Of a stretch of 64,000 nt of DNA, positions 5,365 to 35,237 are shown one piece after another. The notes beneath the pieces were generated by a model. The model searched no databases. It was not told the DNA's origin and worked only from the letters and a program-made list of their open reading frames with translations. How positions within the stretch are numbered: position 1 is the first letter of the stretch; each line of letters begins with the position of its first letter. This stretch comes from an uncultured Spirochaetia bacterium. Lineage in GTDB: Bacteria; Oederibacteriota; PGYV01; CAYTNY01. A program made the translations under genes and the position numbers. Location: contig CAYTNY010000001.1 of NCBI GenBank assembly GCA_964439215.1, forward strand, positions 33 through 64,032, given 5' to 3'.

Positions 5365-5478
5365 AACTATGCCTCCTTTGGCATTTTACCGGCGGCCCTC
5401 CTTGCGGTCCGGACCATACTGCCGGTGGAATAATCGATTCCTTAAACACCACGTTCTCGTACTATTTCAGTTAATACA

Positions 5479-27794: not shown

Positions 27795-30149
27795 CTATTC
27801 TCCTTTGATCTGCTTTCTTAGATCCAGTAAACCGCTGTCTTCCGGAAATGTTTTTATTCCGCGATCCAAAACATTCAATGCTTGTTTTTTGTTTCCTTTT
27901 GTATAATACACATATGCTTCAAAACTATAAAGTTCCGCGGAATTTGTTTCATTTTTTGCTTTTTTGAAGTTCTCCAGTGCTTTTTCATACCTCTTTGTTT
28001 GAAAATAAAACACTCCCAGATTCCTATATATTATACCTTCCTTATAATCATTTTCAAGTAAAAAATCCGCAATGTATTCTGCTTTCCGGTATTCATTTTG
28101 AGTCAGTTTTTCGCCTTTTGAAAGCATTTCAGTAAGCTTAGCCATTGCAATTTCAAACCATTTGCTGTTATCTGATTCTTTCAGCGATTTAAGCAGAGCA
28201 GCAACCCTGCTGTTTTCACTTCCCATTGATACTGCTTTTTTCAGATTTTCACCGGCTTTTTCAAAGATTCCAAGATTAAAATATATTCCTCCAAGATGCT
28301 CAAAAACCCTGGGATTGCTTTCTTCTTTTTCCGCGGCTAAAATAAGATATTTCATTTCATTTTTAAAATCATCAAGATTTGAATAAGCAAGAGCAATATT
28401 ATAAAAGATCATTGATTCCGGCTTGTCCACAGGGAACAAAAGCGCTTTTTTATAAAGTTTTACCGCTTCCTCCGGATAACCCGACGCATTCAGTGCATTT
28501 GCCTGATTTACCATACTTACGGGGTACCATCCTATCAGATCATTATTGTTCTTTGTAAGCCTCGCAAAATCTTCAAACACCCCCCTATACGAATATCTTT
28601 CAAAAACATCCGGACCATAAAGCCTCTGTTTTTTTGATATCCTCAGCAGTATGCCTTTCTGGGAAAAAACAAACCCTTCAGGCGGATGCTCCATTTCAGG
28701 CAGATAGCTGCTCCTGTAAACCGCTTCATCCGGAGAATAAAACCGCACAATCTCAGCAATATTTTCCGCGGTCTTAAACGGCGTCATTTTTATATCACCG
28801 TATCTGCCGGAAAAATCCTCAATACCCCAGTCAAATATAATAAAAGAAGATGTAGCAAACTTAACATCCTTTCGTCTTTTCTGTACTTCCATAATATAAT
28901 ACAGCGGCATAAGGTTATAATCGCCGTCAGCTATATAGACGCCGTCTTTTTCCACGGTCCTTAAAATATTATATCCGTAATCATAGGATAGATAATCCTC
29001 TTTATAATCATTTTTTATGAAATTGGACCAAAACATAAGAACCCCGCCGGCCGCGGCAAGAACAATAAAAAGTTTTTTATACCGCCGGCCCCTTATTCTT
29101 GTGTAAATATACGCTATTCCTGCTGAAATAAAAAGCCCTGCCAGATAGACCGCGGGCATAAGAAAAATATATATCAGCCAGATAACGCCTTCCTGTGTTC
29201 TGTTAAGAAAAACAACCGCAAATATTATAATAAAAGCAGCTGCCGCCAGAAGAACCGATATTCCGCGCGCCCTCTTATAGCCGGCATAAATACCGGCCGG
29301 CAGAAAAACACACAGCACCGAAAAATTCACGGCAAAAAGATATAAAAAATGCTTTACCTGGTATAAATACACATCAGCGGAAGGCGTGACAGGATTAACA
29401 TATCCCCGGCGCAGAACAACCCATAAGAATCCGGATAAGCCGGAAGAAGGATCGCCCCAGTTAAAAACAGGATCAGAAGATGACCTGATAACAAGAAATA
29501 AATACGGCGTGAGCCCTGCCAGAAAAAACAGCGCGGAAATAATATAATTTTTCCCTGATGTCTTTTTGCGGAAAATATATAGACAGGAAGCAAAAACCGG
29601 CGCTAATATTATCATGCTGGGCCAGTGATTGGAAAGGGACAAGCCATAGATATAGGATGACATATATATATATACAGGCGTCTTTGCGCTTTTTGCCTTA
29701 AGCATGGAAAAAATAATAACCGCAAGAAACAGCAGGTTCAGCATATAAATACTTCCCTTTGCCTCTGTTCCCTGATTCCAGAAAATATAGGAAAACGCCG
29801 TTAAAACCGCTCCCGCCCCCGCCCATATGCGCATACCGCTTCCGAAAATATTTATATTAAGCATGATCAGTATTCTGTAAGTCATATAAAGTATTATCAT
29901 CCCCAGAAACGAAGAAAAAACATTCATTCGGAACGCCGGAGACGCAAAAGAAGGCAGGCAGGCGATCTTCCCTGCCATTGTGTGCAGAGGATAAGCCGGA
30001 GGATGCGCTATGCCCAGAGTGTATGCCGCAGCCGCGGTCTCGGGCGAATCATTGTTTTTAAACACAGGGTTCATCGTGTGAAGATAAACACCGAATATAA
30101 AAACCACAACAACCACAGCCGCCGTATATGTTATTGGCTTTTGCTTCAT
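27795..30149 (-). CDS. DUF2723-family (TMEM260/GT-C-like) polytopic membrane protein fused to C-terminal TPR repeats
   Basis: N-terminal motif AYTLGIAHPPAYPLHTMAG typical of DUF2723. About 11 TM helices over the first ~400 aa. C-terminal ~300 aa of TPR-like repeats. Confidence 0.6.
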   Translation of the reverse strand: MKQKPITYTAAVVVVVFIFGVYLHTMNPVFKNNDSPETAAAAYTLGIAHPPAYPLHTMAGKIACLPSFASPAFRMNVFSSFLGMIILYMTYRILIMLNINIFGSGMRIWAGAGAVLTAFSYIFWNQGTEAKGSIYMLNLLFLAVIIFSMLKAKSAKTPVYIYMSSYIYGLSLSNHWPSMIILAPVFASCLYIFRKKTSGKNYIISALFFLAGLTPYLFLVIRSSSDPVFNWGDPSSGLSGFLWVVLRRGYVNPVTPSADVYLYQVKHFLYLFAVNFSVLCVFLPAGIYAGYKRARGISVLLAAAAFIIIFAVVFLNRTQEGVIWLIYIFLMPAVYLAGLFISAGIAYIYTRIRGRRYKKLFIVLAAAGGVLMFWSNFIKNDYKEDYLSYDYGYNILRTVEKDGVYIADGDYNLMPLYYIMEVQKRRKDVKFATSSFIIFDWGIEDFSGRYGDIKMTPFKTAENIAEIVRFYSPDEAVYRSSYLPEMEHPPEGFVFSQKGILLRISKKQRLYGPDVFERYSYRGVFEDFARLTKNNNDLIGWYPVSMVNQANALNASGYPEEAVKLYKKALLFPVDKPESMIFYNIALAYSNLDDFKNEMKYLILAAEKEESNPRVFEHLGGIYFNLGIFEKAGENLKKAVSMGSENSRVAALLKSLKESDNSKWFEIAMAKLTEMLSKGEKLTQNEYRKAEYIADFLLENDYKEGIIYRNLGVFYFQTKRYEKALENFKKAKNETNSAELYSFEAYVYYTKGNKKQALNVLDRGIKTFPEDSGLLDLRKQIKGE

Positions 30150-30201
30150 AAAATCCCCTTTATATCCCGGATAACCGCAGGCTTCAAATGCGGTCCGGTT
30201 T

Positions 30202-32070
30202 TTATTCCGGTCCTTGTTCTGTTTTAATTATTGCTTTTATATAAGGATCCATTTTTCCGTCATCACCGTTAAACCGAATATACTTTTCAGCTGTTTTTTT
30301 CGCGTTTTCTGTATCACCGGCCGCCATATACGCGGTTATAAGGTTTATATAAGCCGTTTCATAGTGCGGCGCCGCAAAAACAGCGGTTTCAAGATGCTGT
30401 ATCGCTTCTTTGAGGCTGCCGGTGCCCTCCGCGGACAGCTGCCCGGAAAGCGCGCCGAACATATTATTCACTTCAGGACAATACGGATTTATTTCCAGGT
30501 CTTTTTTATAATATTCATAGGCTTTTTTCGGATACCCGGCCTGCCGGTAGGCTTCCGCCGCATAATAATACTGAGCAACATCTGTCTGCGGGCAAAGCTC
30601 AACGTTATTCTGCTCAACTATACGCTCATAATAATTTATAGCGCTTTTATAATGCCCGCTTTTGACCAGACGGTTGGCCTGCTTAAGATATATGTTTGAC
30701 GCGGCCGCTTTTCCGTCCGCAGCCGCCGAAAACATTATCAGAAAAGCCGATGCAGCAGCTCCGGCTATGGCGCCTTTTTTTCCTATGCCGGCGCTTTTTA
30801 ATGACCGCTCTTTCTTATATGCCGACACAAAAAATATGAGTATAAAAAAATAAAGTGTTGTCGCCGGAATATTGTAAAAAGTATTAAACAGCGAAGCGCC
30901 CAGCAGCGCAGCAGCGCCCGAAACCGCTCCAGCAAGAAAAGGATCGCCTCTTTTTCTTATATAAAAACTCCTGTAAGCGGAATAAAACAATACCGCAACA
31001 ACGGCAAGAAAGGCCCCCAGCCCTAAAATACCCGTTTCCGAGGCTATAAGTATATAATTCTGATGAGGCATCCAGGTCACCACATAATCATATTTATCGT
31101 TTTTTGGATCATTTAAAAGTATTCCCTGGTAATGCGGAAAATTCAGTCTGTACATACCCATGCCTTTGCCTTTAACCGGTGATTCTTTGATCATGAGCCA
31201 TCCGGCTTCCCACATAAGAAACCTGTGTATCACAGACCGCTGCTTGCCTTCAAGAAATCTTTTTGATTCTGCCAAAACAGCCGGATATACGGCGGCGCCG
31301 CCGATAATAAGCGCAAGCAGCGCGGCGGCAGCTGCCTTTTTGCGCCGTTTAATGAACATTTTCACATGACTGCCTTTTAATGTCAGCCATAAGATTGCAA
31401 ACAAAGCCATGCCGCCCGCAAAACCTATGTAAGTACCCGCCACTTTTGCGTATAAAAATACCGCGAACATAACAACAAACCCCGCACCCGCGGCAGCCTT
31501 ATGTTTTTTTCCCAAAACCGCGTAAGACAGCAGAAGAAACATCGGTATAAGAAGCTGTGACGCAAAAAAATTAGGATTGCCGATGGTGCCCATGGGCCGC
31601 CCCTGAAAATTTGTGTTCCAGCTGAAAATATCCGCATCAAATCTCTGAGCAAGCCCGTAAACCGCCATTATCACATGGACAAAAAACACTAAAAACAGCA
31701 TTCTTCTGCCGTCATTTTCATCGGAAACGTTCCAGATAAAATAGGCCCCGAAAATAAAAAGTACAAGTTCAAAAGCATACTTGGAGGCGATCTGCGCATT
31801 CATCGCCCATGCAACGGAAAGAACCGCGATAACCGCATATAAGAACGCGGGAAAAAGAGCAGGATTGATTTTTACCTCAAATCCCCCTCTGCGCCGCGCT
31901 TCAAGAAAATACAGCAAAAAGAAAAAAGGCAGAAAAAGACGCGCGGCCATAAGCTGGGCAGGGCCGAAAGGATCAAAAAACGGCTGAAAAAAAACCACGG
32001 GGATAAACAGAATTATGAAATTAAGAATATTTTTTCTTAAAAGAATTAACAGCCTGAGATTCAATATCAC
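30202..32070 (-). CDS. O-antigen ligase (Wzy_C)-domain membrane protein fused to C-terminal TPR repeats
   Basis: Multi-TM N-terminal region with Wzy_C hallmarks (GNPNFFASQLL; MPHQNYILIASETGILGLGAFL). C-terminal ~200 aa TPR repeats (KSAINYYERIVEQN...AEAYRQAGYPKKAYEYYKKDLEINP). Confidence 0.6.
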   Translation of the reverse strand: MILNLRLLILLRKNILNFIILFIPVVFFQPFFDPFGPAQLMAARLFLPFFFLLYFLEARRRGGFEVKINPALFPAFLYAVIAVLSVAWAMNAQIASKYAFELVLFIFGAYFIWNVSDENDGRRMLFLVFFVHVIMAVYGLAQRFDADIFSWNTNFQGRPMGTIGNPNFFASQLLIPMFLLLSYAVLGKKHKAAAGAGFVVMFAVFLYAKVAGTYIGFAGGMALFAILWLTLKGSHVKMFIKRRKKAAAAALLALIIGGAAVYPAVLAESKRFLEGKQRSVIHRFLMWEAGWLMIKESPVKGKGMGMYRLNFPHYQGILLNDPKNDKYDYVVTWMPHQNYILIASETGILGLGAFLAVVAVLFYSAYRSFYIRKRGDPFLAGAVSGAAALLGASLFNTFYNIPATTLYFFILIFFVSAYKKERSLKSAGIGKKGAIAGAAASAFLIMFSAAADGKAAASNIYLKQANRLVKSGHYKSAINYYERIVEQNNVELCPQTDVAQYYYAAEAYRQAGYPKKAYEYYKKDLEINPYCPEVNNMFGALSGQLSAEGTGSLKEAIQHLETAVFAAPHYETAYINLITAYMAAGDTENAKKTAEKYIRFNGDDGKMDPYIKAIIKTEQGPE

Positions 32071-33220: not shown

Positions 33221-33242
33221 CGCCGATTATATCATTTCCCTT

Positions 33243-33668
33243 CTATTCATCAATAATCCTGTAATCAACAGGCTTTGCGTTTCTTTTATCAGGAACGAAA
33301 ATACCCAGTATCATGGAGAGTATGCTGTAAAAAACAGAGCCAGCGACAGCGCCCCAGAAACTTTTAACCTCAAAACCGTTCACAAGCAGCCCTGCCAGCG
33401 CAAACATAACTCCATTAATAACAAAAGTAAGCAGGCCAAATGATAACACGTTTATGGGCAAAGTCAATAATAAAACAAACGGCTTAATAAACACATTTAT
33501 GACGGCAATAACAGCCGCGGCAGCCATTAAAATCACCAGACCTTCCAGGCCGTCGGCTTTTATCTCCAGGCCCTTTATCGTCTTCACAACAAGAAAAAGA
33601 GCAAAAGTATTCAAAAACCATTTTATGACAAGCGCTTTGGCATTATAGTCCCGCAATTCCACAACCAT
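33243..33668 (-). CDS. PF04020 (phage_holin_4_2 / YvlD-like) 4-TM membrane protein
   Basis: 141 aa, four hydrophobic helices in the pattern typical of the YvlD/DUF360 holin-like family. Its start lies 26 nt inside the 3' end of the cNMP-binding gene. Confidence 0.6.
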   Translation of the reverse strand: MVVELRDYNAKALVIKWFLNTFALFLVVKTIKGLEIKADGLEGLVILMAAAAVIAVINVFIKPFVLLLTLPINVLSFGLLTFVINGVMFALAGLLVNGFEVKSFWGAVAGSVFYSILSMILGIFVPDKRNAKPVDYRIIDE

Positions 33669-34107
33669 CCTTCACCAGCCTTTTATCCGCGTCTCTCAGC
33701 CGCTGAATAAGCACTTTGATAAATACTTCATTAAGCTTGACCACGACAGCGGGATAATCTTTTTTAAAAGAATTATAATCTCTTCCCGAAAAACGTATCA
33801 TTTTACAGGGTTTAATGGCAACTGCCGATGCGCTCCGCGGCGCGGGCACCATCATTGCCATCTCGCCGAAAAATTCGCCTTCCCTCAGATTGGCAATAAC
33901 CTTTTCCTCGGTCTTGTGTTTTTTTGTGATCTTCACCGCGCCCTCCGCTATTATATACATGGCATCATCACCTATCTGATTCTCCATAAAAATCCCGTCC
34001 CCGGTTTCAAACTCCTCCCAAAGCAGCCGTTCAGAAAAAACCTTTAATTCTTCCTCCGTGAAAATTCCGAAAAATTTCTGTTTTTTCAACACTTCAGCAT
34101 CAACCAT
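33643..34107 (-). CDS. Stand-alone cyclic-nucleotide-binding (CAP effector-domain) protein
   Basis: Phosphate-binding cassette GEFFGEMAMMVPAPRSASAVA. 154 aa with no output domain. Start is 1 nt after the rsmD stop. Confidence 0.75.
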   Translation of the reverse strand: MVDAEVLKKQKFFGIFTEEELKVFSERLLWEEFETGDGIFMENQIGDDAMYIIAEGAVKITKKHKTEEKVIANLREGEFFGEMAMMVPAPRSASAVAIKPCKMIRFSGRDYNSFKKDYPAVVVKLNEVFIKVLIQRLRDADKRLVKDGCGIAGL

Positions 34108-34730: not shown

Positions 34731-35237
34731 TTATTTTTTCTTTTTAGCCGTTTTTTTCTTTTTTACTGTTTTCTTTTTCGGAGACGCTTTTTTTGCCGTT
34801 TTTTCAACTGATTTTTTAACAGTTTTTTTCACGGTTTTTTTGGCTTTTTTCTTTTTAGGCGGCTCCGGCATAACAAAACTCTTTACTTTTGTTTTTCTGG
34901 TGTTAAGACACTTTATACAGTTTTGGGCAAAAGGAACCGCTTTCAGCCTTTCCATGGATATATTTCCGCCGCAGTTATTGCATTTTCCGTAATTATTCCT
35001 TTTTATTCTTTCGAGCCCGTCCTCTATATCGCCCAACAGCTGTTTGTTTTTCTCAGTCAGGTCGTACTGCAGTTCTTTTTCATATATATTGCTTGCCGTA
35101 TCCGCAAAATCCTGCGCGTCGCCTTTGAAGCTGTCAGAGCTTTCTATTTCTTCGTTCTGTCTTTTGATTTCATTGATCTTTTCTTTTTTCATACGGAGAA
35201 GCATTGCTTTAAGTTCTTTTTTTCTTTTTCCATCCAC
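34731..35237 (-). CDS. DksA/TraR-type C4 zinc-finger protein with a histone-H1-like Lys/Ala-rich C-terminal tail
   Basis: Zinc finger CNNCGGNISMERLKAVPFAQNCIKC. C-terminal 45 aa KKKKAKKTVKKTVKKSVEKTAKKASPKKKTVKKKKTAKKKK. Confidence 0.7.
   Translation of the reverse strand: MDGKRKKELKAMLLRMKKEKINEIKRQNEEIESSDSFKGDAQDFADTASNIYEKELQYDLTEKNKQLLGDIEDGLERIKRNNYGKCNNCGGNISMERLKAVPFAQNCIKCLNTRKTKVKSFVMPEPPKKKKAKKTVKKTVKKSVEKTAKKASPKKKTVKKKKTAKKKK

Follow-up and report, generated by a model that had tools for sequence, protein, structure and literature searches.

The PF04020 proteins (formerly DUF360) are widespread in bacteria and have been implicated in envelope stress and in daptomycin-associated membrane remodelling. 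They include YvlD, a product of the sigma-W-controlled, Psp-like yvlABCD operon of Bacillus subtilis, and Lmo2484, which belongs to a bacteriocin-induced, Psp-like operon of Listeria (PMC12791056), as well as LiaZ, a member of the enterococcal liaXYZ cluster (PMC7033496, PMC11601895). In Enterococcus faecalis, liaY, which encodes a PspC-domain protein, overlaps the start codon of liaZ; the two proteins appear to interact in a bacterial two-hybrid assay, and LiaY has been proposed to modulate LiaZ in Enterococcus (PMC11601895). Both proteins contribute to the redistribution of anionic phospholipid microdomains, while constitutive expression of liaZ alone leads to a clumping phenotype and unbalanced liaZ expression is deleterious (PMC11601895). 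Here we describe a locus in which the gene that overlaps a PF04020 gene encodes a stand-alone cyclic nucleotide-binding (CNB) protein. It lies on the minus strand of a stretch of 64,000 nucleotides (nt), referred to as the window, from contig CAYTNY010000001.1 (assembly GCA_964439215.1, an uncultured Spirochaetia bacterium), directly behind rsmD, the gene for the 16S rRNA m2G966 methyltransferase. The rsmD-cnb-yvlD/liaZ arrangement is a lineage-specific, translationally coupled unit in the core genome of Candidatus Goldiibacteriota (Goldbacteria). One possible explanation, to which we give somewhat less than an even chance, is that a CRP-like receptor dimer without a helix-turn-helix (HTH) domain responds to a cyclic mononucleotide by modulating the YvlD/LiaZ-type protein with which it is co-translated.

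The coupling can be read directly from the junctions. The initial annotation held that rsmD ends 1 nt upstream of the CNB gene and that the three genes form a coupled chain, and the coordinates bear this out: the TGA of rsmD, the first gene of this tightly coupled trio, occupies 34111-34109, and a single base (34108) separates it from the CNB ATG at 34107. The CNB gene ends with a TAA at 33645-33643, upstream of which the PF04020 frame offers three candidate starts, an ATG at 33668 (26-nt overlap), a GTG at 33662 (20 nt) and a TTG at 33656 (14 nt). The 26-nt overlap first described thus holds for the ATG, and since the frame contains no further in-frame start between TTG 33656 and the conserved region, an overlap of 14-26 nt is real whichever start is used. 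The orthologues favour the TTG/GTG position, with overlaps of 14 or 11 nt. A Shine-Dalgarno (SD)-like GAAGGA lies within the CNB codons for VKDG, and a GGAGG-type SD sequence for the CNB gene lies inside the 3' end of rsmD.

The same arrangement was found throughout the lineage. Thirteen contexts were examined, namely the window, L001, L003-L005, L006, L007/L010, L008, L009, L170, L171, L172 and the P0037 contig, and in 13 of 13 the order is rsmD, CNB gene, PF04020 gene and then a ROK kinase gene. In 11 related contexts, rsmD and the CNB gene are spaced by -8 to +23 nt. The PF04020 start lies between -26 and +1 nt from the CNB stop, if for L170 and L172 the upstream in-frame TTG/GTG is preferred to the starts of the source annotation, which put the PF04020 gene 10 and 40 nt past the CNB stop. 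The junctions between the two genes take at least six different sequences and never include a real spacer: a TTG or GTG with a 14- or 11-nt overlap (window, L001, L003-L005, L170, L172), an ATG with an 11- or 20-nt overlap (L006, P0037 contig), TGATG (L007), TAAATG (L008), TAATTG (L009) and TGAcATG (L171). A spacer of about zero or less persists even where the junction sequence itself has been remodelled. In L008 and L009 (both at 5463-5468) the CNB and PF04020 frames coincide and are separated by a single TAA, so that read-through would give a fusion of the CNB domain to four transmembrane (TM) helices; the two open reading frames (ORFs) are in different frames in most lineages, and the shared frame is probably due to chance.

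Around the trio, the block extends from speH and dksA, present upstream in all related loci, to the ROK gene. The spacers between speH and dksA and between dksA and either rsmD or corA are always positive (8-206 nt), as are the other junctions of the block (corA-rsmD, PF04020-tRNA), except for a 4-nt corA-rsmD overlap in L003-L005. Given trio junctions that are near zero or overlapping and neighbouring junctions that are mostly positive, the trio behaves as a translationally coupled unit within a larger block. A tRNA-Leu(GAG) gene stands between the PF04020 and ROK genes in the window, 21 nt past the PF04020 stop, and in all seven other loci checked (L001, L003, L006-L010), at 9-89 nt. The sole indel in the otherwise conserved speH-to-ROK block is corA, which is inserted between dksA and rsmD in L001 (3415-4392), L003 (3482-4438) and L171 (2376-3362) and is absent from the window, L006-L009, L170 and L172. 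Further upstream the loci carry pyruvate-ferredoxin oxidoreductase genes or recJ/nth, depending on lineage.

The pairing of the CNB and PF04020 genes is a fixed feature of this one candidate phylum. The two window proteins have 100% identical counterparts in a Candidatus Goldiibacteriota metagenome-assembled genome (MAG). The CNB family comprises 43 clusters at 90% identity, each exactly 154 amino acids (aa) long, without indels and with a mean column identity of 76%; its members are 58-73% identical to the window protein, after which the next match drops to 38%. An exhaustive search that covered 1.84 billion representatives reduced the family to a single representative at 50% identity, the other top matches of the family profile being long proteins with multiple CNB domains. 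In the same genomes RsmD is only 39-51% identical, and we conclude that the CNB protein is under strong constraint. Contigs carrying the same block (P0007, P0017, L010) are publicly labelled Candidatus Aerophobetes (ADurb.Bin490), Spirochaetia and Goldiibacteriota, and some of these MAG labels are probably wrong. The features of the locus are collected in Table 1.

Table 1. Genes and sequence features of the speH-to-ROK region and its downstream flank (window coordinates).
Feature	Position	Strand	Basis
speH (S-adenosylmethionine decarboxylase)	35677-35261	minus	PF02675, E 5.5e-42
dksA-like gene	35237-34731	minus	PF01258, E 1.4e-07; TIGR02420 and yteA family matches
rsmD (16S rRNA m2G966 methyltransferase, 187 aa)	34672-34109	minus	PF03602, E 6.4e-38; TIGR00095, 124.7 bits (cutoff 117.5)
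CNB protein, 154 aa	34107-33643	minus	PF00027, E 3.8e-19
CNB phosphate-binding cassette GEFFGEMAMMVPAPRSASAVA, residues 77-97	33817-33879	minus	alignment to family and CRP
CNB C-helix, residues 119-146	33670-33753	minus	AlphaFold2 model
CNB A140-D141, base-recognition position	33685-33690	minus	profile alignment
CNB/PF04020 gene overlap	33643-33668	minus	direct sequence reading
PF04020 membrane protein, 141 aa from ATG, 137 aa from TTG	33668-33243	minus	PF04020, E 1.4e-25
tRNA-Leu (anticodon GAG)	33221-33138	minus	ARAGORN; Rfam RF00005, 52.3 bits
ROK kinase	33083-32067	minus	Pfam scan
Two large tetratricopeptide repeat (TPR) glycosyltransferase-like proteins	32070-27795	minus	ORF list, Pfam scan

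The initial annotation described the CNB protein as a stand-alone domain with an intact cassette, and this description stands. PF00027 is its sole Pfam domain (68.9 bits against a cutoff of 27.5, residues 31-114), and the cassette residues G81, E82, R91, S92, A93 and S94 are invariant in the 43 orthologous clusters. G81-E82 and R91-S92 align with G71-E72 and R82-S83 of Escherichia coli CRP, so that the ribose-phosphate contacts E72, R82 and S83 of CRP have their counterparts in E82, R91 and S92; judged by these residues the phosphate-binding cassette is intact, with Gly-Glu predicted to meet the ribose 2'-OH and Arg-Ser/Thr the phosphate. The AlphaFold2 model (mean predicted local distance difference test score, pLDDT, 86.3; predicted TM-score, pTM, 0.79) consists of a beta-barrel followed by one long helix (119-146), with no further domain. 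Its best Foldseek matches are members of the CRP/FNR family, namely Thermus thermophilus CAP, Mycobacterium tuberculosis CRP (Rv3676) and Corynebacterium glutamicum GlxR (E of about 1e-10, TM-scores 0.67-0.74), with Clr also among the closest structural relatives. With E. coli CRP and the first three of these regulators the protein shares the fold at 25-29% identity, and its long helix aligns to the CRP dimerisation helix (RLRDADKRL in the CNB protein, RLRRTNNNL in CRP). The model thus identifies the C-helix as a predicted dimerisation and lid helix of the CRP type, and the protein probably acts as a C-helix dimer.

There are also clear departures from CRP. Four extra residues precede the C-helix, and the position that in CRP proteins reads Thr-Ser or Thr-Asn is here Ala-Asp: in the profile alignment A140/D141 stand opposite T134/N135 of M. 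tuberculosis CRP, which we take to be equivalent to T127/S128 of E. coli CRP. D141 is invariant in the 43 clusters and A140 is at least 90% conserved; a further conserved segment, RLVKEGxGIGAL, lies at the C-terminus. Base specificity is set at this position, where Ser/Thr goes with cyclic AMP (cAMP) in CRPs, Asn with cyclic UMP (cUMP) in PycTIR, and Glu with cyclic GMP (cGMP) in XC_0249 (PMC11224242). An invariant Asp would be compatible with cAMP or cGMP as the ligand, and because the cGMP-specific XC_0249 has an acidic residue at this position, the ligand may be one other than cAMP. The protein also lacks the HTH of the CRP/FNR regulators: neither PF13545 nor PF00325 matches it, the sequence ends 8 residues past the C-helix, and the NCBIfam CRP model scores 37 bits against a cutoff of 266. 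A role as a CRP/FNR-type transcription factor is excluded by the absence of a DNA-binding domain. As the protein has neither a DNA-binding nor an enzymatic output, its signalling must proceed by protein-protein contact.

Stand-alone CNB proteins are known from structural genomics. Gmet_1532 (PDB 3MDP) and Mfla_1926 (PDB 3GYD) likewise consist of a single CNB domain with no fused output and superpose on the model with TM-scores of 0.74-0.77, but they are only about 25% identical to it, come from other organisms and have no known partner or link to PF04020, whereas the Goldbacteria family forms a 50%-identity cluster of its own. The literature on stand-alone bacterial CNB proteins that was consulted held nothing on this family or pairing, although no search aimed specifically at CNB-PF04020 was made. 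CNB domains that control membrane proteins are found in the prokaryotic cyclic-nucleotide-gated channels SthK and MloK1, and the CNB protein matches SthK at E values of about 1e-8 to 1e-11. There, however, the domain is joined by a C-linker to a tetrameric K+ channel with six TM helices, whereas the PF04020 protein has neither a pore-domain signature nor an analogue in the PDB.

The initial annotation likened the pair to nucleotide-gated membrane effectors such as PycTM, a comparison that did not survive. According to this scenario the two genes would be a split, Pycsar-like abortive-infection effector, in which a phage-induced cyclic pyrimidine or other cyclic nucleoside monophosphate (cNMP) binds the CNB protein and the PF04020 protein then permeabilises the membrane. 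The association of a CNB domain with membrane-spanning helices does recall PycTM (PMC11224242), and the CNB protein gives weak hidden Markov model matches to PycTIR (E 9e-11) and to the CNB domains of other Pycsar effectors (down to E 2e-07); such PADLOC matches are, however, what any CNB domain gives, and the PF04020 protein itself has no PADLOC match at E <= 1. PycTM and PycTIR are fusions of a CNB domain to TM helices or to a TIR domain, encoded beside the pyrimidine cyclase PycC, which has a class III cyclase fold, whereas here there are two ORFs and no cyclase. That no cyclase is adjacent had been stated correctly: none was found among the window genes scanned with Pfam, the remaining genes of the 64-kb window being read as core-function from their N-terminal sequences only, and none appears in the precomputed Pfam lists for the flanks of the 12 related loci. 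The invariant Asp at the base-specificity position also differs from the Asn of cUMP-binding PycTIR (PMC11224242). Rather than behaving as a variable defence island, the locus is part of the core chromosome with phylum-wide synteny; the window holds flagellar genes, murA, tsaD, smc, ftsY and recJ, together with an lpxA/C/D/I-fabZ-bamA cluster and a pyrimidine biosynthesis operon. A Pycsar-like defence system is extremely improbable, and we reject it for the lack of a cyclase, of a fusion and of a PADLOC match for the membrane protein, and for the syntenic core position.

The second protein of the pair is a clear member of its family (PF04020, 90.4 bits against a cutoff of 28.8) and carries the family motif LTLPINVLSFG. 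Its AlphaFold2 model (pLDDT 85.2) contains four helices of 19-29 residues (10-30, 41-69, 74-95 and 104-122), in agreement with the four TM helices first assigned to it and with those of YvlD, Lmo2484 and LiaZ, and a Foldseek search of the model against the PDB returned no significant analogue (best E 0.3). An internal two-fold repeat is visible in the model, consisting of a TM helix, a short strand (KGLEI/NGFEV) and a second TM helix, twice over. The positive-inside rule would place the invariant TLPIN loop and the two termini in the cytoplasm. The Goldbacteria subfamily differs from YvlD and LiaZ in a conserved C-terminal tail of its own, of the EYRIID type, (E/K)(Y/F)(R/K)(I/V)I(D/E), which is present in 12 of 13 aligned sequences and missing from P0061.

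This membrane protein had been called holin-like and possibly membrane-permeabilising, a label that turns out to be a matter of name only, as the family appears in Pfam and TCDB as 'Mycobacterial 4 TMS phage holin'. Were the locus indeed a holin or lysis module, the PF04020 protein would form lethal membrane lesions and the CNB protein would act as an antiholin-like timer, and the harm done by unbalanced liaZ in Enterococcus (PMC11601895) would fit with such lesions. This reading is nevertheless very improbable, for the protein matches no PHROG family, only 1 of 50,697 phage records matches it, weakly and partially (E 2e-4, 49% coverage), no endolysin or other phage gene lies nearby, and the gene is a conserved core gene. 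In view of the missing PHROG match, the one weak phage match and the core chromosomal neighbours, a phage holin cassette is rejected. Of the proposed second-messenger-controlled membrane or stress module, then, the permeabilising half is unsupported, while the stress half remains plausible, since PF04020 is the family of YvlD and LiaZ from Firmicute envelope-stress operons (PMC12791056, PMC11601895).

How might the two proteins work together? In the mechanism that we consider possible, both would be made from one mRNA, with ribosomes that finish the CNB gene terminating on or within the start region of the PF04020 gene, so that the CNB protein would be made in fixed proportion with its membrane partner. 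The CNB dimer would then dock on the cytoplasmic face of the PF04020 protein, at its N-terminus, its TLPIN loop or its conserved C-terminal tail, and nucleotide binding would alter this association and thereby tune a membrane-homeostasis or envelope-stress activity. A receptor domain without an output of its own requires a partner, and the family occurs in no other context examined. A close formal parallel is LiaY, the PspC-domain protein whose gene overlaps liaZ, as the proposed modulator of LiaZ in Enterococcus. In both cases the start of the PF04020 gene is overlapped by the upstream gene, and in the enterococcal case the upstream-encoded protein is the one proposed to modulate (PMC11601895, PMC12791056). 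The partners differ, however: LiaR or sigma-W controls the PspC-domain and toastrack proteins that fill this role in the Firmicutes, whereas here a CNB protein would fill it. Neither a PspC nor a toastrack (DUF4097) gene, as expected of a Psp-like operon, was found near the PF04020 gene in the window or the related loci. A study of Psp evolution (PMC11237479) makes no mention of this family. A more specific version, in which the pair is a two-gene, cyclic-nucleotide-controlled YvlD/LiaZ module whose HTH-less, CRP-like receptor replaces the PspC and toastrack partners of the Firmicutes and gates or recruits the PF04020 protein, with cGMP as a candidate ligand, is offered more tentatively and must be called rather unlikely.

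The alternative to regulation is that membership of a compact and conserved housekeeping block is the only reason why the trio is co-transcribed and co-translated, the CNB protein being a real cNMP receptor with its target elsewhere and the PF04020 protein acting independently. We regard this operon hitch-hiking as the main rival and weight it equally with modulation of the PF04020 protein by the CNB dimer, so that it too falls a little short of an even chance. A number of observations speak for it and against a functional pair. The whole block, speH-dksA-(corA)-rsmD-CNB-PF04020-tRNA-Leu-ROK, is syntenic in the lineage although speH, dksA, rsmD, tRNA-Leu and the ROK kinase gene are functionally unrelated, and the adjacency of the CNB and PF04020 genes may therefore be inherited and not count as independent evidence. 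The rsmD-CNB junction is no looser than that between the CNB and PF04020 genes, yet rsmD has no obvious functional link to the CNB gene. Tight junctions are also common in the window: counted from longest-ORF starts, 16 of the 47 same-strand junctions (34%) leave at most 1 nt between the genes. In a mirror-tree test on pairwise distances among ten taxa, the CNB-PF04020 correlation (r 0.64) is not specific to the pair, as the PF04020 protein correlates at r 0.66-0.78 with the products of the other block genes and at 0.75-0.78 with those of speH, dksA and the ROK gene.

Nor did the pairing recur outside the lineage. Two profile scans served as outside-lineage controls and not as a census, and their results hold for the matches listed: a PF04020-profile scan of species-representative genomes, which included just one locus of the Goldbacteria type (L010), and a CNB-profile metagenome scan, in which the matches listed were all distant CNB proteins (<=39% identity). 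Among 79 PF04020 loci from Desulfobacterota, Omnitrophota, Elusimicrobia, Patescibacteria, Bacillota and further phyla outside the lineage, not one has an adjoining CNB gene or rsmD, although in 3 of the 79 a gene with a cNMP domain lies about 3 kb away, and a crude clustering of neighbours around these loci yielded no recurrent partner; conversely, 0 of 80 loci of the nearest other CNB proteins have a PF04020 gene within 3 kb. The co-occurrence check proposed by the initial annotation came out positive in all 13 contexts within the lineage and negative in these controls. No CNB-PF04020 fusion was seen in 120 PF04020 homologues or in the best 150 matches of the exhaustive family-profile search, the latter not being a good fusion detector, as long multi-CNB proteins rank first in it.

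In other phyla the PF04020 gene stands directly behind, and often overlaps, unrelated genes, among them those for RsmG/GidB, PEBP, rubrerythrin, a metallo-beta-lactamase, a cytidylyltransferase, MGMT and a response regulator. An unrelated stand-alone CNB gene, the nearest other one with genomic context (L173, 63-3309; 156 aa, 35% identical), in turn overlaps trpA upstream by 7 nt and a gene for a 649-aa TPR protein downstream by 4 nt. Tight packing is thus not specific to the pair. Against hitch-hiking stand the two junctions of the trio, which remain at or below about zero in all lineages despite their differing sequences while the neighbouring junctions are positive (corA-rsmD in L003-L005 apart), the confinement of the CNB family to this one context in both the family and the exhaustive searches, and the LiaY-LiaZ precedent of a modulator encoded by an upstream overlapping gene (PMC11601895). 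On balance, gene order strongly supports co-expression and only moderately supports functional coupling, and cannot by itself prove regulation.

The coupling of the CNB gene to rsmD, in a dksA-rsmD context, raises a further possibility, that RsmD or the translation apparatus is what the CNB protein acts with, a cNMP signal modulating 16S rRNA methylation or ribosome function. The close rsmD-CNB spacing, the SD sequence for the CNB gene within the rsmD 3' end and the presence of dksA upstream in all contexts would agree with this, as would a locus in the MAG Elusimicrobia bacterium ADurb.Bin231 (L012, 3357-4441), in which rsmG/GidB, also a 16S rRNA methyltransferase gene, is overlapped at its 3' end by the PF04020 gene; the resemblance to the Goldbacteria rsmD context may be a coincidence. 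The window protein does qualify as an RsmD equivalog, its TIGR00095 score lying above the cutoff. The CNB protein, however, evolves far more slowly than RsmD (67% versus 51% mean pairwise identity), the RsmD-CNB distance correlation is the lowest in the block (r 0.36), and no RsmD-CNB fusions were seen. Control of RsmD by a cNMP would, to our knowledge, be without precedent, and on these grounds a joint function with it is improbable.

Several features of the surroundings deserve mention in their own right. A promoter-like element on the minus strand at 33226-33253, inside the last PF04020 codons, consists of TTGATG, a 16-nt spacer and TATAAT with an extended TG, and its position directly upstream suggests that tRNA-Leu(GAG) may have a promoter of its own. 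Promoter and terminator scans gave weak consensus matches only, and an Rfam scan of the window found nothing besides the tRNA. At its C-terminus the DksA-like protein (168 aa) carries a Lys-rich tail of about 50 aa, PPKKKKAKKTVKKTVKKSVEKTAKKASPKKKTVKKKKTAKKKK (34734-34886, minus strand), which is lacking from the orthologues of 116-132 aa in related loci. Directly downstream of the ROK kinase gene, the two large genes at 27795-32070 (minus strand) encode membrane proteins with glycosyltransferase-type domains and C-terminal TPR arrays, one carrying a Wzy_C/O-antigen-ligase domain and the other resembling the protein O-mannosyltransferase TMEM260; the Wzy_C/TPR gene is missing in some related lineages.

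What the locus means for the PF04020 family depends on which of these explanations holds. In either case the misleading 'phage holin' label is corrected for this locus and a reading as a defence system is excluded. Should the pairing not be real, the trio would be no more than a lineage-specific operon layout of a phylum without cultivated members. We see in it a modest but testable lead. If the pairing is real, it would join two orphans, a stand-alone CNB receptor and a PF04020 effector, and if the proposed control by a cyclic nucleotide is correct, a very widespread family would gain its first ligand-regulated member, and PF04020 function would become accessible through a small-molecule handle.

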